Part shown: one piece after another, positions 2,628 to 46,701 of the stretch
Numbering within the stretch: position 1 is the first letter of the stretch
Layout: every line of letters starts with the position of its first letter
Assembly: GCA_025963875.1 (NCBI GenBank)
Contig: JAOPZY010000260.1
Coordinates: 583 to 64,582 of the forward strand
Reading direction: 5' to 3'
Length of the DNA: 64,000 bases
Source: Actinomycetota bacterium
GTDB taxonomy: Bacteria > Actinomycetota > CADDZG01 > JAHWKV01 > JAOPZY01
Position numbers and translations under genes: made by a program
The notes under the pieces: generated by a model
Told to the model about the DNA's origin: nothing
Seen by the model: only the letters and a program-made list of their open reading frames with translations
Databases searched by the model: none

Positions 2628-3338
2628 GTGGCTGAAACTTTGGGCATGGAACGACCAAGCCGCATCCTGGTGGTGGACGACGAGGAGAACATCCGCGAGC
2701 TCCTCGCGATGGGTCTTCGCTACGAGGGCTTCGAGGTCGAGGTGGGCGACGGGGGGCGCGCTGCGCTCGCCGCCGTGCCCAAGTTCCGGCCCGACCTCAT
2801 CGTGCTCGATGTGATGATGCCGGACCTCGACGGGTTCGACGTCTGCCGCCGGCTGCAGGCCGACGGCGTCCGGGCCCCCGTGATCTTCCTCACCGCCCGC
2901 AAGGGCCTGGAGGACCGGCTGACCGGCCTCACGATCGGCGCGGACGACTATCTCACGAAGCCCTTCAGCTTCGAGGAGCTGCTCGCCCGGGTCCGCATCG
3001 TGCTGCGGCGCCTCGGCCGGGCCGCCGACGCGCCCCACCGGCTCAACTTCGCCGACCTGGAGCTTGACGAGGACGCCCACGAGGTGTGGCGCAACGGCGA
3101 GCGCATCGATCTCACGCCCACCGAGTTCAACCTGCTGCACTTCCTGCTCACCAACAACGGACGGGTGCTCTCCAAGCAGCAGATCCTGGACAACGTCTGG
3201 CAGTACGACTTCAATGGTGACGCCTCGGTCGTGGAGACCTACGTGTACTACCTGCGCAAGAAGATCGATGCCGTGCAGCCTCCCCTGATCCACACGGTGC
3301 GGGGCGTCGGTTACACGTTGCGCCTGCCCCGCAAGTAG
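2628..3338 (+). CDS. OmpR-family two-component response regulator
   Basis: Receiver domain (ILVVDDEENIRELL, phospho-acceptor D in DVMMPDLDGF) plus a winged-helix OmpR/PhoB DNA-binding domain (TPTEFNLLHFLL, VRGVGYTL). The start is GTG at 2628 or ATG at 2646. Confidence 0.9.
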   Translation: MAETLGMERPSRILVVDDEENIRELLAMGLRYEGFEVEVGDGGRAALAAVPKFRPDLIVLDVMMPDLDGFDVCRRLQADGVRAPVIFLTARKGLEDRLTGLTIGADDYLTKPFSFEELLARVRIVLRRLGRAADAPHRLNFADLELDEDAHEVWRNGERIDLTPTEFNLLHFLLTNNGRVLSKQQILDNVWQYDFNGDASVVETYVYYLRKKIDAVQPPLIHTVRGVGYTLRLPRK

Positions 3339-3340
3339 CC

Positions 3341-4810
3341 GTGTCGCTGCGCCTGCGTCTGGTGACCGGGCTTGCGGCGCTGGTGGTCGTCGGCCTGCTC
3401 GTCTTCGGCACCGTGACGTACCTTTCCGTCAACCGTTTCCTCCTCACCCGCCTCGACAGCCAACTCTCCGACGCCGCCAGGGCCCTGGTCGCGACCGACG
3501 CCGCGCGGCTCAGGATCCCCGGCGGGGGAGCCCCCGACGGGGGGCCGGGTCCCGGCGGCCCGGGTGGCTCTTCGGATGAGACCAGCGCGCGGAATGCCGC
3601 CGGCCCCGAGCTCTTCGTCGAGTTCGTGCACCCGGACGGCAGTGTGTTCGAGCCGGTCGGGGCAACGAGGGATCCGGGCGGCCTGGCGCCGCAAACCGGC
3701 CCGGTCGTGGCGGCGATGACCGCGCACCCCGGGGACAGGCAGGTGCGCCGCCTCACCGTCGCCCCCGAGGGGGGCGGCAAATCTGAGCGTGTGGCGGTGC
3801 TCCCGATGAACGCTGGGGCCATCGTCGTCACCGCGTCCCTGAAGCCCATCCGGGACACGCTGGAGCATCTCCTCGTCGTCGAGGTCGCGGTCGGGCTCGG
3901 CGTGCTGGTCCTCACCGGGGGGCTGGGGCTGGCGCTGGCGCGGCAGGCGACGCGCCCCCTGGAGGAGATCGCCGTCACGGCGGACGCAATCGCGGCCGGG
4001 GACATGGACCGCCGGGTGCCGCCCGGCCGGAGCGGCAGCGAGACAGGCCGCGTCGCCCGGGCCCTCAACGCCATGCTCGCCCAGATCCAGGATGCCTTCA
4101 CGCGGCGTGACGCCACGGAGGCGCGTCTCAGGACGTTCGTGGCCGACGCCTCCCACGAGCTCTCCACCCCGCTCACCTCCATCCGCGGGTACGCCGAGCT
4201 GTTCCACCGCGGCCTCCAGAACCGGCCGGAGGACCTCGCGAAGGCCCTGCAGCGCATCGAGAGCGAGGCCACCCGGATGGGCCTCCTCGTCGACGAGCTC
4301 CTCACGCTGGCGAGCTTCGACGCCGGGCGGCCGCTGGCCCGCGACCCGGTCGACCTGCGCAGCATCGCCCACGACGCTGCAGTCGACCTGCGGGCCGTCG
4401 ACCCCACGCGCCAGGTCGACCTCGATGCCGCCCACCCGGTCATCGTCGTCGGCGACGAGGCCCGCCTGCGCCAGGTGGCGGCCAACCTCGTTTCGAACGT
4501 CCGTCGCCACACGCCGGCGGGAACGTCGGTGACGGTGCGGGCGCATCAGGAGGACGGCGTCGGGCTGCTCGAGGTGGCCGACACGGGGCCGGGCATGACC
4601 GGCGAGCAGGCCGCCAAGGTGTTCGACCGCTTCTACCGGGTGGACAAGGCACGCTCCCGGGCGGTCGGCGGGGCCGGACTCGGGCTGGCCATCGTGGCGT
4701 CGATCGCCGAGGCCCACGGGGGCCAGGCATCGGTGAAGACGAGGGAGGGAAAGGGAACGACGTTCACCGTCGCGATCCCGCTGGCGGCACCGCCCCCCGA
4801 CGCCGGGTAG
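3341..4810 (+). CDS. Sensor histidine kinase (HAMP-HisKA-HATPase_c)
   Basis: N-terminal TM helix and periplasmic region, second TM helix, HAMP domain, H-box ASHELSTPLTSIRGY, G-boxes (DTGPGM, GGAGLGLAI). It lies 3 nt downstream of the regulator. Confidence 0.9.
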   Translation: MSLRLRLVTGLAALVVVGLLVFGTVTYLSVNRFLLTRLDSQLSDAARALVATDAARLRIPGGGAPDGGPGPGGPGGSSDETSARNAAGPELFVEFVHPDGSVFEPVGATRDPGGLAPQTGPVVAAMTAHPGDRQVRRLTVAPEGGGKSERVAVLPMNAGAIVVTASLKPIRDTLEHLLVVEVAVGLGVLVLTGGLGLALARQATRPLEEIAVTADAIAAGDMDRRVPPGRSGSETGRVARALNAMLAQIQDAFTRRDATEARLRTFVADASHELSTPLTSIRGYAELFHRGLQNRPEDLAKALQRIESEATRMGLLVDELLTLASFDAGRPLARDPVDLRSIAHDAAVDLRAVDPTRQVDLDAAHPVIVVGDEARLRQVAANLVSNVRRHTPAGTSVTVRAHQEDGVGLLEVADTGPGMTGEQAAKVFDRFYRVDKARSRAVGGAGLGLAIVASIAEAHGGQASVKTREGKGTTFTVAIPLAAPPPDAG

Positions 4811-17291: not shown

Positions 17292-17789
17292 ATGTCGGTT
17301 GTCGCTGAAGCGGGGAAGGAGACGTTGGTGAAGTCGCACACGGTGTACAAGACATTCGAGACGGCCCGGCGCCGGGAGATGGTGAGGATCACCGGGGACG
17401 TCCAGCGGGCCGTCGACGAGGCGGGGATCCTCGAGGGCATGGCCCTCGTCTCCGCCATGCACATCACCGCCGGGGTCTGGGTGAACGACGACGAGCCGGG
17501 CCTGCACCGGGACGTGCTGGAGTGGCTCGACAAGGTGGCTCCCCCGAGCTGGCAGCCGCCGGTCAACGAGGTGGCAAAGGGGCTGCTGCCGGATCCGGGT
17601 GATTACCGCCACCACGCCGGTGGGGAGGACAACGGGGACGCGCACTTGAAGAACCTGCTCGTCCACCACCAGGTGATCGTCCCGGTCACCGACGGCCGCC
17701 TCGACCTCGGTCCCTGGCAGCAGGTGTTCTACTGTGAGTTCGACGGTGGGCGCCGCAAGCGCCTTATCATCAAGGTGCTCGGCGATTGA
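17292..17789 (+). CDS. YjbQ/UPF0047 family protein (secondary thiamine-phosphate synthase-like)
   Basis: Full-length match to the YjbQ family (ITGDVQRAV ... HITAGV ... DNGDAHLKN ... LDLGPWQ). Confidence 0.8.
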
Positions 17790-17799
17790 GGGGGACGTG

Positions 17800-18570
17800 A
17801 TGCTGGAGATCGAGGCAACCAAGGAGGCGGTCCGGACGAAGTACGCCGAACTCGCCATCATCGCGGCCGAAGAGTCGGAGGATGACTGTTGCGGCGGGTC
17901 GTCCTGCGCCTGCGGCGTCGGTGGCAACGCCTGCTTCGGGCCGGGCGACTACAGCGATCGGGAGCTTGGGTTCCTACCCGATGCTGCCGTCCAGGCCTCG
18001 CTCGGATGCGGCAACCCGCTGGCCGTCGCCGCCCTTCGGGAAGGCGAGGTCGTGCTCGATCTTGGCTCCGGCGGCGGGATCGATGTCATCCTCTCGGCCC
18101 GCCGGGTGGGCTCCGCCGGCAAGGTCTACGGGCTCGACATGACCGACGAGATGCTTGCGCTCGCCCGGCGTAACGCCGAGGAGGCCGGTCTGGCCAATGT
18201 CGAGTTCCTGAAGGGTGAGATCGAGGACATCCCCCTGCCGACGGCGTGCGTCGACGTGGTCATTTCGAACTGCGTCATCAACCTCTCGACCGACAAGGTC
18301 ATGGCCCTCGCCGAGGCGGCCCGGGTGCTCCGGCCGGGGGGCCGGCTCGCCGTGACCGATGTCGTCGCCGATCCAGACCTCGACGAGGCGACCCGCCGGG
18401 ACATGGAAGCCTGGACGGGCTGTATTGCAGGGGCGCTCACCCGTGAGCACTACCGGGAATTGCTCGAAGGGGCCGGGTTTGGCGACGTTGAGATACAGGA
18501 GACACACCGTGTCCATCCTCGAGCAAGCTCGGCCATCATCCGCGCCCGAAGGCCGCCGGGGGTTGTCTAG
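17800..18570 (+). CDS. arsM: Arsenite S-adenosylmethionine methyltransferase-like protein (ArsM/Cyt19 family)
   Basis: N-terminal Cys cluster (CCGGSSCACG), then SAM-MTase motif I VLDLGSGGGID, then the VISNCVINL, LRPGGRL and GCIAGAL motifs typical of actinobacterial ArsM. Confidence 0.75.
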   Translation: MLEIEATKEAVRTKYAELAIIAAEESEDDCCGGSSCACGVGGNACFGPGDYSDRELGFLPDAAVQASLGCGNPLAVAALREGEVVLDLGSGGGIDVILSARRVGSAGKVYGLDMTDEMLALARRNAEEAGLANVEFLKGEIEDIPLPTACVDVVISNCVINLSTDKVMALAEAARVLRPGGRLAVTDVVADPDLDEATRRDMEAWTGCIAGALTREHYRELLEGAGFGDVEIQETHRVHPRASSAIIRARRPPGVV

Positions 18571-32633: not shown

Positions 32634-34349
32634 TCAGCCTTCGAAGCCAGGCAGGACCTGGGTGTGCTCGATGCGGACGGCGTCGAGCTTGTACGGGTTC
32701 AGTCCGAGGGCCGCGAGGACCGTCGGCGCGACCTGGGCGGTGTCCACCCTCTCGTCGACGACGTTGCCGCCGCCGTTGCCGTGCCCGCCGGTGAGGCGAG
32801 CGCCGTTGACGACGATCAGGGCGACGTGGGTATCGTCCGTCGCGAAGCCGCCGTGCTCGGCCACCTTGGCGCCACTGCCGGTGTAGATGGTTCCGGGGAC
32901 AGGCTGGACGATGAGGTCCGGTGTCCTGGGGTCGACCAGCGGGCTGTTGAAGCGATCGGCCAGGGCCTTGCCGGACAGGACGTACTGGACCTTGGCGGTG
33001 TTGGCCCCCGCCTTGTCCGCCAGCAGGGCGTTGACGGCCGTCGTCACCTGCGACTGGTTCTTCAGCCACATCAGGGAGATGTCGTCGTCGGTGGTCTGGG
33101 CGATGGCGACGCCGGCGTTGGTGACCACGTTTGCCTCGGCGTGACCGACCTTGGCCAGCTTCGACGGGTCGATCGGGGACTGCCCGTGCTTGGCCGTGAC
33201 GATGATGTCGGTCGAGCTGAGCTTGTTCCTGGCCTTCAGCTCCGCCACCATCTTGCCGAGCGCTCCATCGACGAAGCTCACGGCGCCCGAGAGCTGTGGC
33301 GTGAACTGAAGGGTGGTGGGCTCGTAGCCGCCGGGGAAGTAGTTCGGGTCGCAGCCCGGCGCGTTGTTGCTGCGCACGCACGACAGCTGCGGGTCGACGA
33401 GCTTCTGCCCGACACTCACCGACTGGAAGTTCATGCCGAAGATTGCGGGCGTGCCCACCTGCTTCGTGCCTGCCGAGTTGAGCCCGTCGATCTGGTTCAG
33501 GATCGCGTCGACCTTGATCTCGTCATAGGCCGAGGTGTCGCCGACCTTGTCCGTGATGAAGGGGCCGTTGTTGTCTCCCGTCGGGTTGGGGAGCGGGAAG
33601 GTGACCGTGTTGCCGCGGGTGTCGACCAGGGAGGGCGGGATGATGTCGGCGTTGATCTCGGTCATGAACTTGTCGTCGACCGCGTTGGCCGTGCCGTGCC
33701 CGCTCACCATCACGTTGGCCGAGGGGTGCTTGTCCGCCCATGCCGTGCGGAGACCGGCCTGGTGGGCGACGCTGAACATCGAGTTCGACCGGAGGTAGTC
33801 GTTCGGGGCCACGGGCACACACTTGCCGCCGACCAGCGCGCGCGGGAGCTGGGCCGGGTCGATGGACTCGTTGAGGATGGTCCGGCTCCCGATCCCGCCG
33901 TTGGCGGTGCTCGGGGCGTTGATGTCGAGGTTCTCGAAATACTGCATCTCGGCCCCGGGAGGCCCGGAGCAGTCCTGGACCGTCCCGGTCGGCAGCTGGG
34001 CCGGAGGTGTGAACATCGTCCGGTCGTAGCTGTCGTCGTAGTAGACGCCGCTCAGCTTGGGTGTGGCGCCCGTCGTGAGTGCCACCACGCCCGGCGATGA
34101 GTCGGAAGGCGTCGATGTCGACACGTTCGAGTACGAGGTGCCGTTGGCCATCAAGCTCGCAATGGTGGGACACAGGTTTGCCGCCATGCATTTGGTCACA
34201 TCCGAGGCGTGCAGGCCATCCACGCTGATCAAGAGCACGTGGTGAGCCGGTTCGGCGTTCGCAATGGCGGTGGCGCCCGCCACCGCCGTTGCGGTCAGCG
34301 ACATCACGCTCAGGCCGACAAGCGCCGAGCGGGGCAGTCGGTGTCTCAT
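32634..34349 (-). CDS. Secreted type I phosphodiesterase / nucleotide pyrophosphatase (alkaline-phosphatase superfamily, NPP-like)
   Basis: Signal peptide, then HHVLLISVDGLHASDV metal-ligand motif typical of NPP/AlkP-core enzymes. About 570 aa mature. The start is set at MRHRLPRSALVGLSV. Confidence 0.7.
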   Translation of the reverse strand: MRHRLPRSALVGLSVMSLTATAVAGATAIANAEPAHHVLLISVDGLHASDVTKCMAANLCPTIASLMANGTSYSNVSTSTPSDSSPGVVALTTGATPKLSGVYYDDSYDRTMFTPPAQLPTGTVQDCSGPPGAEMQYFENLDINAPSTANGGIGSRTILNESIDPAQLPRALVGGKCVPVAPNDYLRSNSMFSVAHQAGLRTAWADKHPSANVMVSGHGTANAVDDKFMTEINADIIPPSLVDTRGNTVTFPLPNPTGDNNGPFITDKVGDTSAYDEIKVDAILNQIDGLNSAGTKQVGTPAIFGMNFQSVSVGQKLVDPQLSCVRSNNAPGCDPNYFPGGYEPTTLQFTPQLSGAVSFVDGALGKMVAELKARNKLSSTDIIVTAKHGQSPIDPSKLAKVGHAEANVVTNAGVAIAQTTDDDISLMWLKNQSQVTTAVNALLADKAGANTAKVQYVLSGKALADRFNSPLVDPRTPDLIVQPVPGTIYTGSGAKVAEHGGFATDDTHVALIVVNGARLTGGHGNGGGNVVDERVDTAQVAPTVLAALGLNPYKLDAVRIEHTQVLPGFEG

Positions 34350-34613
34350 GGTTCCTCCTTCGGTCAGGGGCCGCGATGCCGGCCACGAACGGAGAGGAGT
34401 GGGCTCGGATGCCACCCCCCGATCGGCGCAGCCGGACCGGGGGTTCATGGGACAGGCGCGCAACCTCCCACCCCCGAGCTCAAGTACGCCTTGAGACTCG
34501 AACGTAGCAACGACCCTTGAACGAATCGTGAACGGCGCGTGACGGGAGGCCGTCATTCTCCTGAGAGTCTGCGCGCAGCGCTCCAGGCGAGACAGCAAGG
34601 TGCACCGGCCGAC

Positions 34614-34626
34614 GATGCTATGATGC
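34614..34626 (+). promoter_or_regulatory. Second copy of GATGCTATGATGC with the -10 TATGAT ending 6 nt before the vapB ATG; predicted leaderless promoter
   Basis: Identical 13-mer and identical spacing to the site at 27163-27175. Confidence 0.45.
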
Positions 34627-34630
34627 TCCC

Positions 34631-34885
34631 ATGCGTACCACCGTGACGCTGGACCCCGACGTCGAGGCGCTGATCAAGTCGGCTATGGCCGAGCAGCACC
34701 TGACCTTCAAGGATGCGGTGAACCAGGCGATCAGGGCCGGACTGTCTCCACGGCGGAGAGAGCCATTCCGACAGCGGACCTTCGACCTCGGCTTCCGTCC
34801 GGATATCCCCTACGACAAGGCGCTGCAGCTGGCGGCGGCCGTCGAGGGCGAGGAGATCGTGCGCAAGCTGTCGTTGGGAACGTAA
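34631..34885 (+). CDS. vapB: VapB-type antitoxin
   Basis: Small protein (MRTTVTLDPDVEALIKSAMAEQHLTFKDAVNQAIR) directly upstream of vapC. Confidence 0.65.
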   Translation: MRTTVTLDPDVEALIKSAMAEQHLTFKDAVNQAIRAGLSPRRREPFRQRTFDLGFRPDIPYDKALQLAAAVEGEEIVRKLSLGT

Positions 34886-34896
34886 GTCGCCTGTCG

Positions 34897-35322
34897 ATGG
34901 TCATTGTCGATGCCAATGTGCTGCTCTACGCCGTCAACGGGGCTTCGCCCCACCACCTGGCAGCCAAGGGATGGGTCGAGGGGGCCCTCGGCGGCGACGA
35001 GCCGGTGGGTTTCGCCTGGGTCGTGCTCCTCGCGTTCCTGCGCCTGGTCACGCTCCCGGCCGTGTTCCCGAAGCCTCTCGACGTCGACGTGGCGCTCGAA
35101 GTCGTAGAAGCCTGGCTGTCTGCTCGGGCTGCCACAGTCGTGCAGCCCACTGCTCGGCATGCCGCAGTCCTCGGAGGCTTCCTCAGAGCGTCGGGCACAG
35201 CGGGCAACCTCGTCACGGATGCACATCTGGCAACGCTCGCCGTCGAATACGGGGCTCGCCTCTGTACCTTTGACCGAGACTTCGCCCGCTTCGCCGGTGT
35301 GCGCTCCTTCGCGCCTGCCTGA
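34897..35322 (+). CDS. vapC: VapC PIN-domain toxin (ribonuclease)
   Basis: MVIVDANVLLYAV...LVTDAHLATLAVEYGARLCTFDRDF gives the canonical PIN acidic residues. Confidence 0.8.
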   Translation: MVIVDANVLLYAVNGASPHHLAAKGWVEGALGGDEPVGFAWVVLLAFLRLVTLPAVFPKPLDVDVALEVVEAWLSARAATVVQPTARHAAVLGGFLRASGTAGNLVTDAHLATLAVEYGARLCTFDRDFARFAGVRSFAPA

Positions 35323-35356
35323 CGTTCCGGGCCGGAACGCCTGGTAAGTCTGGGCA

Positions 35357-35399
35357 GTTTCCGTCAAAAAGTGTCCCCACGGCCCTTTTTGACGGAAAC
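35357..35399. terminator. Perfect 15-bp inverted repeat (GTTTCCGTCAAAAAG / CTTTTTGACGGAAAC, 13-nt loop) between convergent vapC and the CMD gene
   Basis: Seen directly. The 3-prime arm abuts the CMD gene stop codon. Confidence 0.5.
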
Positions 35400-35968
35400 T
35401 ATGAAGCGCGGCTCCCGAGACCTCGCTTGGCGAAAACCTGCGCCGCGGCAGCCATGCCGTTCAGCGCCGCCGGGAACCCTGCGAAGACCACCATGAGCAG
35501 GATGGTCTCGACCACGTCGGCGGGGCTCCCTCCGGCGTCGAGCAGGGCGTGGATGCGCAGGAGCAGCTCCTGGTGGCCGGGTGTGCCGAGGGCGGTGAGC
35601 CGTGCCACCGCAACGATCTCCCGGTCCTGGGCGGTGAGGGCACCCGTCGTTTGGCCGGACCGGGCTTCGTTGATCTCCGGCTCCATGGCGCCGGCGTTGC
35701 GGGCGCCCTGGGCGTGGAAGCGCAGTTGCGGGGTGGCATTGCCGAGAGCAGCGAGGGCCGCGACCGCAGCCAGCTCGCGCCGGCGCAGGCTCAGCCCCGG
35801 ACGGGCGTAGACGTCGCCGTAGGCGAACTCGACGAGGTAGCGCCCGAGGTCCGGCGCCACGCCGGCCAGGTCCTGCAGCACCTGCGGATCCTCTGCCGCC
35901 GCAACCTCCCGCAGGATCGCCACTCCGCGCTCGTAGCGGTCTTTATCCGGCGCCTTGAGGGGCGCCAT
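35399..35968 (-). CDS. Carboxymuconolactone decarboxylase (CMD) family protein
   Basis: About 189 aa matching the CMD/AhpD-like fold. The 501-aa track ORF is a fusion with antisense pstB noise. Confidence 0.65.
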   Translation of the reverse strand: MAPLKAPDKDRYERGVAILREVAAAEDPQVLQDLAGVAPDLGRYLVEFAYGDVYARPGLSLRRRELAAVAALAALGNATPQLRFHAQGARNAGAMEPEINEARSGQTTGALTAQDREIVAVARLTALGTPGHQELLLRIHALLDAGGSPADVVETILLMVVFAGFPAALNGMAAAAQVFAKRGLGSRAS

Positions 35969-36006
35969 TGCTTTCACTCGGCGCCTTGAGGGGCGCCTGG
36001 GCGGGC

Positions 36007-36897
36007 TCAACCCATCTGGCCGGTCACGTAGGCCTTCGTGCGGAGGTCCATCGGCACCTCGAAGACATGGTCGGTCTGACCGTACTCGATCAGCTCGCCC
36101 GTCCGCCGGTCGTCCCCGAGGAGAAAGACGGCCGTGTAGTGCGACACCCGCCGCGCCTGGAACATGTTGTGCGTGACGAGGCACACCGTGACGTCGGCGG
36201 CGAGACGGGTGATGAGCTCCTCGATCTTGGCGGTCGCAATGGGGTCGAGGGCGGAGCACGGCTCGTCCATCAGCAGCACCTCCGGCTCGACCGCGAGTGC
36301 CCGTGCGATGCAGAGGCGCTGCTGCTGGCCGCCCGAGAGCACCCCGGCGGGGGAGTGCAGCCGGTCCTTCACCAGTTCCCACAGGGCGGCATGGTGGAGG
36401 GCCGACTCGGCGGCCTCCCTGAGGATGGACTTCGAGCGGACACCGTTGAAGCGCAGGCCCGATACGACGTTCTCGAAGATGCTCAGGTTCGGGAACGGGT
36501 TGGGGCGCTGGAAGACCATGCCGACGCGGCTTCGGACGAGCTCGGGCTGGGTGTCCCTGGCGTACACGTCGAGCTCGCCGATCCGGATGGTGCCGGTGAC
36601 GGATCCGCCGGCGTCGTCGTGGAGGCGAGTGATGGCCCGCAGCAGCGTGGTCTAGCCGCAGCCCGACGGGCCGACCAGCGCCGTCACGCGGTTGCGGGCG
36701 AGGTCGAAGGTCACGTCGCGCACGACCTGGTGGGCGCCGAAGGCAACGCCCACGCCGGCGAGGGTGACGGCGCTGCCCGTATCCGGGAGTGGGTCCGGGA
36801 GCTTCGGCTTCGTTGCCGGCCCTGAAGGGGCGGCCTTGTCCGCTGGCCATGCAGCCGGCAGCTCCACCTCGGGTTCGTTTGTCACGGTGTCCGTCAT
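36007..36897 (-). pseudogene. pstB: pstB, phosphate ABC transporter ATP-binding protein, interrupted by an in-frame TAG replacing the Walker-A lysine codon (GPSGCG*TT)
   Basis: One reading frame is continuous from 36897 to 36007 except for a TAG at about 36652-36654. The N-terminal part ends ...ALVGPSGCG and the C-terminal part continues TTLLRAI... with the signature LSGGQQQRL and Walker B LLMDEP. Confidence 0.7.
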
Positions 36898-36916
36898 CGC
36901 ACACTCCTGAACTCGG

Positions 36917-37918
36917 TCAACGGGATCTGCCCGCGAGCCGCCCCGACACCATACGGGCTGCGACGCTCAGGAGCAGCACGAGGGCCAGCAGCACGAAGGC
37001 GGTCCCCCAGGCGACCTGCTGCGCCTCGGGGAACGCCTGGGTCCCGTCGGCGTAGATCACCAGCGGCATCGCGGCGGTGGGCTGCAACGGCGACAGATTG
37101 AACAGCTGGCTGCCGATGGAGGTGAAGAGCAGGGGGGCCGTCTCGCCGACGGCCCTGGCGATGGCGAGCAGGCTCCCCGTGACGAGCCCCGCGACCGCTC
37201 CCCGGAGAACCACGGATCTGGCCACCCTCGAGCGCCGGGCGCCCAGGGCCAGGGCGGCCTCCCGCAGGTCGACGGGCACCGCCAGCATGGCGGCCTCGCT
37301 CGCCCGGATCACGATGGGCAGCATGAGCACCGCCAGGGCGAAGCTGCCCGCGAGCGCGGAGAAATGGCGCAGGGGCTCCACCAGCACGGCGTAGGCGAAG
37401 ATGCCGATGGCGATGGACGGCACCCCCGTGAGGACGTCGGCCCCGAAGCGGATCGTGGCGGCGAGGCGCCCCTTGCGTTCCAGGAGGAACAGCGCCGCCG
37501 CGATGCCGACCGGGACGGCCATCAGCGCCGCCAGGCCCACGGTGAGCGCCGATCCGGCGATGGCATTGCGGATACCGCCCCCCGGGATGCCGGGCGGGGT
37601 GGGGTCGTGGGCGAAGAAGCCGAGTGTGACGGCATGGATGCCCCGCGAGGTCGTGTAGGCGAGGAGCGCCACCAGCGGGACCAGGCAGATGCCGACGGCG
37701 AGAGCGCACAGCGCGTGGGAAAGTCGGGTGGCAGCACGCCGGCGGGGAAGGCTCCGGCGGGCCGAGTTCCGGATCTTCTCGCGCCGTGCGGTTGCCCCCG
37801 CGGCCAGGTGCGCGGGCAGGGGGTCCGCGGGCAGCAGTTCCCCCGAGGCGCCCCTCAAGGCGCCGTATACAGTCTCGACCACGACGTCGCCGGTGTCGGT
37901 GGTCCGAAGTGTCGTCAC
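36917..37918 (-). CDS. pstA: Phosphate ABC transporter permease PstA
   Basis: Polytopic permease with the EAA-like loop (ASEAAMLAVPVDLREAALALGA). Its GTG start overlaps the pstC stop in a GTGA junction. Confidence 0.85.
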   Translation of the reverse strand: MTTLRTTDTGDVVVETVYGALRGASGELLPADPLPAHLAAGATARREKIRNSARRSLPRRRAATRLSHALCALAVGICLVPLVALLAYTTSRGIHAVTLGFFAHDPTPPGIPGGGIRNAIAGSALTVGLAALMAVPVGIAAALFLLERKGRLAATIRFGADVLTGVPSIAIGIFAYAVLVEPLRHFSALAGSFALAVLMLPIVIRASEAAMLAVPVDLREAALALGARRSRVARSVVLRGAVAGLVTGSLLAIARAVGETAPLLFTSIGSQLFNLSPLQPTAAMPLVIYADGTQAFPEAQQVAWGTAFVLLALVLLLSVAARMVSGRLAGRSR

Positions 37919-38967
37919 GCCGTCACCAAACGGGCAGCCTGTCGCCTGCGACGGCGGAGCAGGATCTGGCCCAGCGCGTTCACCGCCACGCTGATGGCGA
38001 ACAGGTAGACGACGACGGCGATCACGGCGCTGCGCTGCAGCCCGGGGGCCGCCTCCCCGAACGTGTTGATGACGGCGGAGCCGAGGGTGGCGCCGGGCGA
38101 CAGCAGGGTGGTCGACACGCTGTGGGGCAGGGCAAAGCGGTTGCCGATCACCATGGCGACGGCGATGGTCTCGCCCAGCGCACGGCCCATCGCGAGGGTG
38201 ACCGCTGCCTCGATGCCCGAACGGGCGCCGGGGATCACCGCCTTCCTGGTCACCTGCCAGCGGGTTGCCCCGAGCGCGCGGGCCGCCTCCCGTTCGGACA
38301 CGGCCACGCCGGAGAGGGCGGTGCGGGAGAGGGCGACAACGGTCGGCAGGATCATCACCGCCAGCACGACGCTCGCCAGCAGCAGGCTGGAGCCGAGCGG
38401 GGGACCCGCGAAGACCAGGCGTCCCAGCACCGGCAGCCTCGACAGCCAGGGCTCGACGTGATGCTGGAACAGCGGGACGAGGACGAGCAGCCCCCACAGC
38501 CCCACGACGATGCTGGGCACCGCGGCGATGAGGTCGATCAGCACCGACAGCGGCTGTGACAGCCGGCGGGGCGCCATCTCGGAGAGGTAGGCGGCGCTGC
38601 CGACCCCGATGGGGACGGCAAGCAGGAGCGCGAGCAGCGTGGTGACCAGCGTGCCGACGACGAAAATGCCTGCCCCGTAGACCTTCCGGCTGTCGTCCCA
38701 GGTCCCCGACCACAGGAACGTGAGCCCGGAGTGGCGGAACGCCTCGCTCGACCCGGTCACGAGCGTGACCACAAGGCCGAGGAGCACCGAGGCGAACACC
38801 AGCGCCCCCAGCCAGCGCAGGAGGGTGTAGGCACGGCCCCCACCCCGGGCGCGGTGGCGTTGGACCGCTTCCCGTACCCCGGCGACGGGGACCCGGTGCT
38901 CGGGCGGGGACTCCTCCAGCAGCGTCGGGGCGGCCACCGGCTCCCCGCCCCGGTCGAAGACCTTCAC
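37915..38967 (-). CDS. pstC: Phosphate ABC transporter permease PstC
   Basis: Polytopic permease with the EAA loop (SEREAARALGATRWQ). Its GTG start overlaps the pstS stop. Confidence 0.85.
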   Translation of the reverse strand: MKVFDRGGEPVAAPTLLEESPPEHRVPVAGVREAVQRHRARGGGRAYTLLRWLGALVFASVLLGLVVTLVTGSSEAFRHSGLTFLWSGTWDDSRKVYGAGIFVVGTLVTTLLALLLAVPIGVGSAAYLSEMAPRRLSQPLSVLIDLIAAVPSIVVGLWGLLVLVPLFQHHVEPWLSRLPVLGRLVFAGPPLGSSLLLASVVLAVMILPTVVALSRTALSGVAVSEREAARALGATRWQVTRKAVIPGARSGIEAAVTLAMGRALGETIAVAMVIGNRFALPHSVSTTLLSPGATLGSAVINTFGEAAPGLQRSAVIAVVVYLFAISVAVNALGQILLRRRRRQAARLVTA

Positions 38968-40109
38968 GAGAAGAGCGGCTGACCACTCGCGGTCTGGAGG
39001 GTGAGCAGGGTCGTGTGCGCCAGCGTGACGGCGTTGTCGGGCAGCGGGGCGTACCCGAGCGGGGCTGCCTGTTGCTGCCCGGTGGTCGTGACCCAGTCGA
39101 AGAGCTTCCCGAGCACGATCCCCACGTTCGTGGACGCCTGCTTCTGGTAGAGGAGGGCCCAGCTGAAGTTGGCGAGGGGGTAGGTGGCGGCCCCCCCGCC
39201 GTTGACGATGTTGAAGTTCGCCGCGCTCAGGTTCGTCGCCTGGGCGCCGGCGGCTTTGATGGAGTCCAGCGTCGGCGCCACGAATGCGCCGGAGGCGTTC
39301 TTCAGCGCCACGTTGTTGAACTTGCTCTTCTGCGCGAAGGCGTACTCCACGTAGCCGATGGCGCCCTGGGTCTGCTGGATGTAGCTGGCCACGCCGGTGT
39401 TGAGCTGCTGGCCCACTCCGATGCTGGCGATCGGCCAGCGAGTGGCGGCCTTGCTGCCCGCCTTGGACGTCCAGGCGGTGCCGCCCGTGGCGAGGAGGTA
39501 CTGGTCCAGGTCGTAGCCCGGCCCGGACGAGTCGGCCCGGTGCACGGGCACGATGGCGAGGTGCGGAAGCTTCACCCCGGTGTTGAGCCCCGCGATGGCC
39601 GGGTCGTCCCAATTCGTGACGGCGCCGGTGTAGATGCCGGCGAGCGTCGGCCCGTCGAGCTTCAGCCCGGTGTCGAGGCCCGGGATGTTGTAGCTGAGCG
39701 CCACCCCACCGAGGTCCACCGGTACCTGGAGAATGGTCCCGGCTGTGCCGGTGGCCGGGGACGGCATCGGGACCTCGGACTGGCCGAACTGGACGGTGTT
39801 CTGCTGGACGTCGGTGATGCCGACGCTGCTGCCCACCGGCGAGTAGTCGACGGACACGCCCTTGTTGGCCTGGTTGTAGTAGTAGAAGGCGCGCTCGTAG
39901 AAGGGCTGGATGGAGTTGGCTCCGGCACCGGTCAACTTGAGCGTTGGCGTCCTCGTGTCGCAGTCGCCGCCCAGCGTGCCCCCCGGCGCCGGCGAAGAGG
40001 TCGATGACGAGCAGGATCCCGACGAGCCGGCGTTGGTCGACGTCGTGCTGGAGGACGTGCACGCGACCGCCAGGAGACCTGCAGCGCAGGCGATCGCCCC
40101 GAGGCGCAT
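38964..40109 (-). CDS. pstS: Phosphate-binding lipoprotein PstS
   Basis: Lipobox LLAVAC and a PBP-superfamily phosphate-binding fold. The start is set at MRLGAIACAAG. An alternative upstream M is at 40142. Confidence 0.85.
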   Translation of the reverse strand: MRLGAIACAAGLLAVACTSSSTTSTNAGSSGSCSSSTSSPAPGGTLGGDCDTRTPTLKLTGAGANSIQPFYERAFYYYNQANKGVSVDYSPVGSSVGITDVQQNTVQFGQSEVPMPSPATGTAGTILQVPVDLGGVALSYNIPGLDTGLKLDGPTLAGIYTGAVTNWDDPAIAGLNTGVKLPHLAIVPVHRADSSGPGYDLDQYLLATGGTAWTSKAGSKAATRWPIASIGVGQQLNTGVASYIQQTQGAIGYVEYAFAQKSKFNNVALKNASGAFVAPTLDSIKAAGAQATNLSAANFNIVNGGGAATYPLANFSWALLYQKQASTNVGIVLGKLFDWVTTTGQQQAAPLGYAPLPDNAVTLAHTTLLTLQTASGQPLFS

Positions 40110-40253
40110 CCGGTGTCGGAGGTGGTGCGGCGGGCCTTCCATGGTTGCGTGGCTCAACGGCCTGCTCCTCTCGTCGCGCTGGACCGCGGGAGTCGGGGGG
40201 ACGGAAGCGCCCGCCACGACGCGGCGGGACCTTACATCATTAGAGCAGTGGAT

Positions 40254-40282
40254 ATCGTAAAAATACTACAAAGGCCTGTCAA
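40254..40282 (-). promoter_or_regulatory. Candidate sigma-70-type promoter for pstS (-35 TTGACA, 17-nt spacer, -10 TACGAT)
   Basis: Read on the minus strand: TTGACAggcctttgtagtattttTACGAT. It lies 110-140 nt upstream of the pstS start in an AT-rich patch. Confidence 0.4.
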
Positions 40283-40337
40283 CCGCCCCGCCGGGTGGGC
40301 TATTCCCCCAACTTGCCAGGGATCTGGCTCTGGAGTA

Positions 40338-40362
40338 CCCTATTTTCAACGTTGTTATAGGG
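40338..40362. promoter_or_regulatory. Nested palindrome CCCTATtttCAACGTTGttATAGGG about 14 nt upstream of the SBP56 gene start; candidate operator
   Basis: Outer 6-bp arms are perfect (CCCTAT/ATAGGG). The inner 8-bp palindrome CAACGTTG is perfect. The GGGAAAGGAG RBS follows. Confidence 0.35.
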
Positions 40363-40375
40363 GAAAGGAGTCAAA

Positions 40376-41785
40376 GTGGCGGATCCCACGTTCTACCGTT
40401 CGGCGAAGACGGCAGCCGCCGCACCGCCCGAACGCCTCGCCTACGTCGCTACGCTCAACACGCCGGGACAGGATGGGGAGGCCCGCCCTGACGCCATCGT
40501 GGTACTCGACACTGACCCCCAATCGCCGTCCTACGGCAAGATCGTGGGGCGCGTCGACATGACCCATACCGGCGACGAGCTCCACCACTTCGGCTGGAAC
40601 GCCTGCAGCGCTTGCCTCTGCCACATCGGGTCCAACGGCCACGCCGGGCACGACCATCACCACGACGCCGAACGGCGCTACCTCGTCGTCCCCGGCCTGC
40701 GCTCGTCGCGCATCTACATCATCGACACCAAGCCGGACCCGACCAAGCCCACCATCGTCAAGACCATCGAGGCCGACGAACTGGCGGCCAAGACCGGCTA
40801 CAGCCGGCCCCACACCTCGCACTGCGGCCCGGATGGCATCTATATGAGCGCTCTCGGTGCCGCCGACGGCAACGCGCCCGGCGGGATCTTCGTCCTCGAC
40901 CCCGACACCTTCGAGATCCGGGGCGCCTGGGAGCAGGAGCGGGGGCCGCAGACCCTCGCCTACGACTTCTGGTGGCACCTCAACCACGACATATTGATCA
41001 GCAGCGAGTGGGGCACGCCGAACATGGTCGAGGGCGGCCTCGATCCCTCGCTCATCGGGCAGTTCGGCCACCAGCTCCACGTCTGGGACCTGCCCAACGC
41101 CAAGCACCTCCAGACCATCGACCTCGGCCCCGAACAGCAGATGGTCCTCGAGCTGCGCCCCTCGCACGACCCGGACAAGACGTACGGCTTCGTGGGCGTC
41201 GTCGTCTCCACCGCCGACCTGTCCGCATCGGTGTGGACCTGGTACCGCGGCGACGACGGCGAGTGGAAGGCCGTGAAGACCATCGAGATCCCTGCCGAGC
41301 CGGCCCCCGCGGAGCAGCTTCCCCCCGCCCTGCAGCCCTTCGGGGCCGTGCCGCCGCTCATCACCGACATCGATCTGTCCGTCGACGACAAGTTCCTCTA
41401 CGTCTCCTGTTGGGGCACCGGCGAGTTCCGCCAGTACGACGTGTCGGACCCGTTCAACCCCAAGCTCACCGGCTCCGTCCACCTCGGTGGCATCGTGCAC
41501 AAGGGCGCCCACCCGACGGCCGGTCCGCTCAACGGCGGCCCGCAGATGGTGGAGATCAGCCGGGACGGCAGGCGCGTCTACGTGACGAACTCGCTGTACG
41601 CCTCCTGGGACGCGCAGTTCTACCCGGAGGGCATCAAGGGCTGGATCGTGAAGCTCGACGCCGACCCCAACGGCGGCATCGCCGCCGACCCGGACTTCTT
41701 CGTACCGTTCGAGGGCGAGCGCCCGCACCAGGTCCGCCTCGAGGGTGGCGACGCCTCGTCCGACTCATATTGTTATTCGTCGTAG
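40376..41785 (+). CDS. Selenium-binding protein (SBP56) family protein / putative methanethiol oxidase homolog
   Basis: 469 aa with full-length similarity to the SBP56 family (beta-propeller, conserved His/Cys cluster CSACLCHIGSNGHAGHDHHHD). Confidence 0.8.
   Translation: MADPTFYRSAKTAAAAPPERLAYVATLNTPGQDGEARPDAIVVLDTDPQSPSYGKIVGRVDMTHTGDELHHFGWNACSACLCHIGSNGHAGHDHHHDAERRYLVVPGLRSSRIYIIDTKPDPTKPTIVKTIEADELAAKTGYSRPHTSHCGPDGIYMSALGAADGNAPGGIFVLDPDTFEIRGAWEQERGPQTLAYDFWWHLNHDILISSEWGTPNMVEGGLDPSLIGQFGHQLHVWDLPNAKHLQTIDLGPEQQMVLELRPSHDPDKTYGFVGVVVSTADLSASVWTWYRGDDGEWKAVKTIEIPAEPAPAEQLPPALQPFGAVPPLITDIDLSVDDKFLYVSCWGTGEFRQYDVSDPFNPKLTGSVHLGGIVHKGAHPTAGPLNGGPQMVEISRDGRRVYVTNSLYASWDAQFYPEGIKGWIVKLDADPNGGIAADPDFFVPFEGERPHQVRLEGGDASSDSYCYSS

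Positions 41786-45099: not shown

Positions 45100-46701
<1,602 letters not shown>

Follow-up and report, generated by a model that had tools for sequence, protein, structure and literature searches.

The pstB gene of the window (the whole 64-kb stretch of DNA analysed here) is broken by a single in-frame TAG codon at the position of the Walker-A lysine, and as written it would encode no functional ATPase subunit. We consider that the TAG is probably a real, very recent and unfixed null allele, private to one strain. The phenomenon is overall an ordinary one, a nonsense codon confined to one strain and linked to a missense change; it is either a pseudogene allele of very young age or an artefact of assembly, and it is not a case of recoding. 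The gene and its landmarks are:

36007..36897 (-): pstB, from the ATG at 36897 to the TGA at 36009..36007, 296 codons plus stop, broken at codon 82
36652..36654 (-): the in-frame TAG (K82*), in place of the Walker-A lysine codon AAG
36628..36630 (-): codon 90, which reads ACT (Thr) against AAT or AAC (Asn) in every relative; N90T, the second private change
36904..36908 (-): Shine-Dalgarno sequence AGGAG, 6 nt before the pstB ATG, by direct reading of the sequence
36652..36897 (-): N-terminal fragment according to the depositors, 81 aa, 'hypothetical protein', JWL57_3672, MCW3045514.1
36007..36567 (-): C-terminal fragment according to the depositors, 186 aa, internal GTG start, without the P-loop, MCW3045513.1

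The TAG is the only internal stop in the pstB frame (context LVGPSGCG*TTLLRAI), and N90T sits 25 nt downstream of it. The initial annotation had described a frame of about 296 codons with a single TAG at the Walker-A lysine, and translation, together with alignment to homologs and to solved structures, confirmed this description. Nine orthologous DNAs were compared at codon 82 (L081–L085, L092–L094 and L096) and all nine have AAG, which bears out the proposal of a one-base A-to-T change, here a single transversion. The comparison of this position with orthologs, also suggested at that stage, gives the same answer for the protein: lysine stands at the TAG position in 120 of 120 retrieved homologs and in all 23 that were aligned. 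Asparagine is equally constant at position 90 (120/120) and is found there in the solved PstB 9k3x as well.

In a profile search, the protein with its lysine restored matches TIGR00972 with an E value of 5.6e-94 and a score of 314.1 bits, against an equivalog cutoff of 343.2, and the next family other than PstB reaches 139 bits, so that PstB is the best family by far. This clade of PstB proteins scores below the equivalog cutoff (314 vs 343 bits) although its orthology is clear. Three solved PstB chains (9k3x, 9k3y and 9k3s) match the repaired protein with an E value of 2e-66, the TAG aligning to their Walker-A lysine. Where the Walker-A motif GxxGxGK[ST] has its catalytic lysine, the window pstB has the TAG codon. 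The other ABC motifs are intact, namely the Q-loop, the LSGGQQQ signature, the Walker B motif LLMDEP and the H-loop VTHN; the Q-loop, LSGGQ, Walker B and H-loop are those of the clade consensus (alignment A1) and also align to 9k3x. Compared with canonical PstB (TIGR00972 and the three solved chains), the window gene thus has the same domain, motifs and operon position, whilst its clade differs in carrying a variable N-terminal extension of about 45 aa and the window copy itself differs in having no P-loop lysine. The extension is rich in proline and alanine (residues 1–45, window 36763-36897), and its length differs among close strains, as in the 15-aa insertion of L081/P0001 (alignment A1).

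On these motifs and alignments, the window gene is a PstB ortholog by descent that would be unable to encode a functional member of the family. With a premature stop where close orthologs have a sense codon, it would be classed as a nonsense pseudogene. That the TAG falls exactly on the Walker-A lysine carries no statistical weight, because, of the 2664 single-base changes open to pstB, 60 create a stop, spread over 53 codons, and a stop at any of these 53 would be equally inactivating.

The rest of the operon, its candidate promoter and the genes downstream of it are arranged as follows:

40254..40282 (-): candidate sigma-70-like promoter TTGACA-N17-TACGAT, proposed solely on its fit to the consensus (10/12 positions; shuffled sequences would give 0.1)
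38964..40142 (-): pstS, phosphate-binding lipoprotein, 392 aa, intact; TIGR00975 261.8 bits against a cutoff of 205; exact protein MCW3045517.1
37915..38967 (-): pstC, permease, 350 aa, intact; TIGR02138 258.9 bits against a cutoff of 196; MCW3045516.1
36917..37918 (-): pstA, permease, 333 aa, intact; TIGR00974 236.9 bits against a cutoff of 193; MCW3045515.1
35399..35968 (-): CMD/AhpD-like gene (carboxymuconolactone-decarboxylase family), directly downstream of pstB; PF02627; MCW3045512.1
34631-35322 (+): VapBC-type pair, an 84-aa partner and a PIN/VapC toxin (TIGR00028, 143 bits), between the CMD and NPP genes
34349..32634 (-): NPP phosphodiesterase, PF01663, with a Sec-type signal peptide

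Lying last among the transporter genes in the order pstS-pstC-pstA-pstB, pstB shares one strand with the other three and is coupled to them. At the pstS/pstC and pstC/pstA junctions the GTG start of each gene overlaps the preceding stop (GTGA), and 19 nt separate pstA from pstB; the candidate promoter precedes the pstS ATG by about 110 nt. The PstS, PstC and PstA sequences match the depositors' annotated proteins exactly, and the exact PstC protein is present in Logan too. With all three proteins above their equivalog cutoffs, the earlier view of pstS, pstC and pstA as intact and translationally coupled is upheld. Synteny with suf, aceA and glcB is shared by the 90%-identical contig L085 and by the sibling-MAG contig L086, which stops within pstC, short of pstB; this shared gene order identifies the operon as the lineage's orthologous pst operon and not an odd paralog. 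Between sufS and pstS there is a gene for an SBP56 selenium-binding protein / methanethiol oxidase (40376-41785 (+), PF05694, 626 bits), which is not at that position in L085, the more distant of the syntenic relatives. A change in PstS, V156L, is also private to the window. We do not count it as a third sign of decay in the operon, since the substitution is conservative and 7 of 58 homologs have leucine here.

Neither phoU, nor phoR/phoP, nor an alternative Pi transporter was identified within the 64-kb window. A two-component system at 2640-4810, examined as a candidate PhoPR, proved to be a generic OmpR/HK pair that reaches none of the specific cutoffs. The NPP phosphodiesterase had been described as adjacent to pst, which proves inexact: it lies 1.66 kb downstream of the pstB stop, past the CMD gene and the opposite-strand VapBC pair. 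The CMD gene follows pstB in L081, L092, L093 and L094 as well. In contig L093, from a related MAG, the place after CMD is taken by a DDE transposase (2740-4062) and not by VapBC, marking a variable spot in the population. The interval from the pstB stop to the CMD ATG (35948-35997) holds a perfect 19-nt direct repeat, CGGCGCCTTGAGGGGCGCC, with the two copies spaced 31 nt apart; each copy is itself a GGCGCC...GGCGCC hairpin, and one of them scores as terminator-like on the opposite strand. The sibling contig L092 has the repeat in common with the window, and the 95%-identical L081 is without about 30 nt there. At a distance of 18 kb from the pst operon is an arsenite methyltransferase gene (17734-18570 (+), NF008823, 297.9 bits against a cutoff of 263), with a UPF0047 gene beside it at 17292-17789. 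An ecological link between this methyltransferase and loss of Pst, by way of arsenate entering through phosphate transporters, is possible.

The closest relatives place both private changes at the very tip of the window branch. A protein from a sibling MAG, MCW3035411.1 (GCA_025963855.1), is the window PstB with K82 and N90 restored, identical at the other 294 residues, and a version with K82 and T90 is absent among some 15 billion proteins. The window and the sibling contig L092 are collinear over 37731..34285 of the window, with 98.7% identity. Their pstB copies differ at nine sites, seven of them synonymous and the remaining two being K82* (AAG to TAG) and N90T (AAT to ACT); pstA shows six synonymous and no nonsynonymous differences from the sibling MAG. 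As the rest of pstB and pstA thus differ only synonymously from the sibling, any inactivation must be very young, and K82* and N90T are the newest events on the window branch. Furthermore, omega values against the 95%-identical L081 are 0.08 for pstB, 0.14 for pstA and 0.09 for pstC. These are the same as values for intact ortholog pairs, and constraint on pstB therefore lasted until very recently. A test for relaxed selection by branch assigned 5 synonymous and 3 nonsynonymous changes to the window and 10 and 4 to L081, counts too small for significance. More widely, the window PstB is 91–95% identical to intact metagenomic orthologs, and the best PstB proteins among GTDB representatives come from Acidimicrobiales MAGs, at no more than 79% identity; the window's own species is not represented in that set.

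Considering these observations, the sequence of events under a real null allele can be sketched. The host would be a soil-type, Acidimicrobiales-related actinomycetotal population captured as a MAG, and the gene the syntenic pstB of its lineage. A single AAG-to-TAG transversion would cut PstB after 81 residues, ahead of the P-loop lysine; no ATP-binding subunit would then be made, and the PstSCAB importer would be dead despite intact pstS, pstC and pstA. N90T may be a neutral change that followed inactivation, or it may have arisen together with K82* in one mutational event. Transport is abolished in PstB variants that lack ATPase activity (PMC5775613), and pstSCAB-phoU mutants generally express the Pho regulon constitutively (PMC3511308). 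By analogy with E. coli, Citrobacter and mycobacteria, high-affinity Pi uptake would be expected to be lost and Pho-regulon signalling to be constitutive, derepression of the regulon on loss of PstB being a reasonable inference. Expression of the downstream CMD gene may be reduced through polarity from the premature stop, as judged from other bacteria.

The chief alternative is an artefact of assembly or sequencing, which we regard as possible whilst leaning against it. The true pstB would then be intact, with AAG and AAT at the two codons, and the odd bases would come from erroneous or minority reads in a strain-tangled interval of the assembly graph. The Logan assemblies of run SRR13312996 are instructive here, as they hold essentially the same strain as the window in three contigs: L089 (99.95% identical to the window), L095 (99.93% over window 36270..33397) and L096 (99.82% over window 40599..36647). 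L096 covers codon 82 and reads AAG, a point in favour of an artefact, and it ends 7 nt past the TAG site, where the next base is the polymorphic third position of codon 84. Coverage by this run's contigs stops at 36647 and starts again at 36270, so that the gap takes in N90T together with a switch of haplotype. At synonymous sites the window pstB is a mosaic, resembling L092 and L096 over codons 1–138 and L093, L094 and L095 over codons 149–259, with the switch between codons 138 and 149 (window 36451-36484). Both the breaks, which bracket N90T and fall so close to the TAG, and the passage from an L092-like to an L093/L094-like haplotype are in keeping with a faulty consensus. Several strains evidently co-occur, and either recombination between them or a chimeric MAG consensus would have shaped the pstB interval. 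On these contigs the TAG allele is not fixed, co-occurring strains of 98–99.8% identity keeping AAG and AAT.

The allele is also unique to one assembly, as an artefact would be, and was found in no other assembly examined. The 90% cluster of the 81-aa fragment contains no further truncated copies (about 15 billion proteins), and JGI metagenome contigs gave no match either to the exact 48-mer with the codon left open or to a degenerate TAG-specific pattern. Finally, K82 and N90 are both invariant (120/120), and unselected noise is as likely to strike such positions as drift after inactivation.

Against an artefact, a mixture of real strains cannot yield bases that none of them has. Moreover, K82* and N90T lie within 25 nt and must therefore share the same reads, so that two errors would have had to occur together in enough copies to win the consensus of a 67-kb contig; this linkage counts in favour of a real allele. 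The remainder of the contig is also clean. Neither frameshifts nor further interrupted genes were found in the 64-kb window, and Pfam matches run full length in the genes examined, save for two shortened by start-codon choice. Over the 14.5 kb for which at least two same-species comparators exist, 23 SNPs are private to the window, of which 13 are synonymous, eight nonsynonymous and two intergenic. Private SNPs being mostly synonymous, the contig is not error-ridden, and the synonymous excess over mutation alone suggests that the private variation is mostly genuine and filtered by selection. Outside pstB, too, private SNPs tend to fall in tight pairs or clusters (34892 and 34911; 46279 and 46281; 48030 and 48035; 45400-45466), a pattern that would fit either short tracts of recombination with unsampled strains or switching of the consensus between strains.

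If the null allele is real, it might in addition have been favoured by selection. Loss of Pst could be positively selected, for example by locking the Pho regulon on, secreted NPP included, or by lessening the entry of arsenate; N90T would have come first, as a hypomorphic change, and K82* would then have abolished function. Two independent-looking changes do fall in the nucleotide-binding helix whilst the other 294 residues are those of the sibling, constitutive Pho expression is a familiar outcome of pst loss of function (PMC3511308), and there is an arsenite methyltransferase gene 18 kb off and an NPP gene with a signal peptide 1.7 kb downstream. We nevertheless judge a selected knockout improbable. 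It is a sub-case of the real allele, two changes cannot carry a test of selection, and the link to arsenic or to NPP is circumstantial. The allele was seen in no other contig or sample, so nothing points to a sweep or to repeated hits. It is similarly improbable, in our view, that natural populations toggle Pho constitutivity or arsenate exposure by means of disposable pstB nulls, with K82* and N90T as a selected two-step knockout.

A last reading concerns the meaning of the TAG codon itself. TAG is a normal terminator in this organism, ending about 21 of the 60 genes called in the window. A GC3-based gene scan found high-GC3 frames meeting across an in-frame TAG at 4810, 15901, 30145 and 41785, and systematic recoding of TAG was considered on that account. 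Translation led to its rejection, all four junctions being ordinary gene ends followed by a same-frame neighbour (the end of a histidine kinase; LivG/LivF; SufB/SufD; SBP56/SufS). Across the 64 kb, pstB is the only conserved gene with an in-frame TAG at a sense position, where recoding would be expected to touch several genes, and neither tRNA genes nor Rfam families were found in the window. The epsilon-amino group of the Walker-A lysine contacts the phosphates of ATP in ABC ATPases, so pyrrolysine or any near-cognate residue other than lysine inserted at this position would still inactivate PstB. We therefore give almost no credence to a suppressed or recoded stop, in which an amber suppressor tRNA, pyrrolysine or programmed read-through would supply full-length PstB: the frame past the TAG is perfectly kept, as such a reading would have it, though this is equally expected of a very young pseudogene, and relatives at 98–99.8% identity have a plain AAG. 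Of the three readings that the initial annotation had offered, two thus remain, recent inactivation and an error of sequencing or assembly, and the suppressed stop is not supported.

The window allele resembles the Pho-constitutive pstSCAB mutants of E. coli, Citrobacter and Salmonella in that a single part of the high-affinity Pi ABC importer is damaged. Those are laboratory mutants of Proteobacteria with phoU in the operon, whereas the window allele is natural or artefactual, belongs to an uncultured actinobacterial MAG in which operon and window are without phoU, and is known from sequence alone. A nearer parallel is Sinorhizobium meliloti 1021, a cultured strain with a natural frameshift in pstC that was verified by resequencing and by phenotype. 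Both cases are recent point lesions in a single strain, with the operon otherwise intact and relatives intact. They differ in that the window has a nonsense codon in the ATPase gene and S. meliloti a frameshift in a permease gene, and in that the window lesion is known from a MAG consensus.

If real, the TAG allele would be one more strain-level loss of high-affinity phosphate uptake, this time in an uncultured soil actinobacterium, with constitutive phosphate-starvation signalling expected. It would be of mild use for population-genomic surveys of pst variation and would not surprise specialists. There is a practical consequence for annotation in either case. In the GenBank record pstB appears as a 'hypothetical protein' plus a truncated 'ATPase subunit', with no pseudogene flag, the product name of MCW3045513.1 being 'phosphate transporter, ATPase subunit'. 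Metabolic reconstructions from the MAG would wrongly call Pst complete or, should the TAG be an artefact, wrongly call it broken. Two other product names in the deposit are garbled, 'inner rane subunit PstA' (MCW3045515.1) and 'transporter rane protein 1' (MCW3045516.1), a matter of the pipeline and not of biology.
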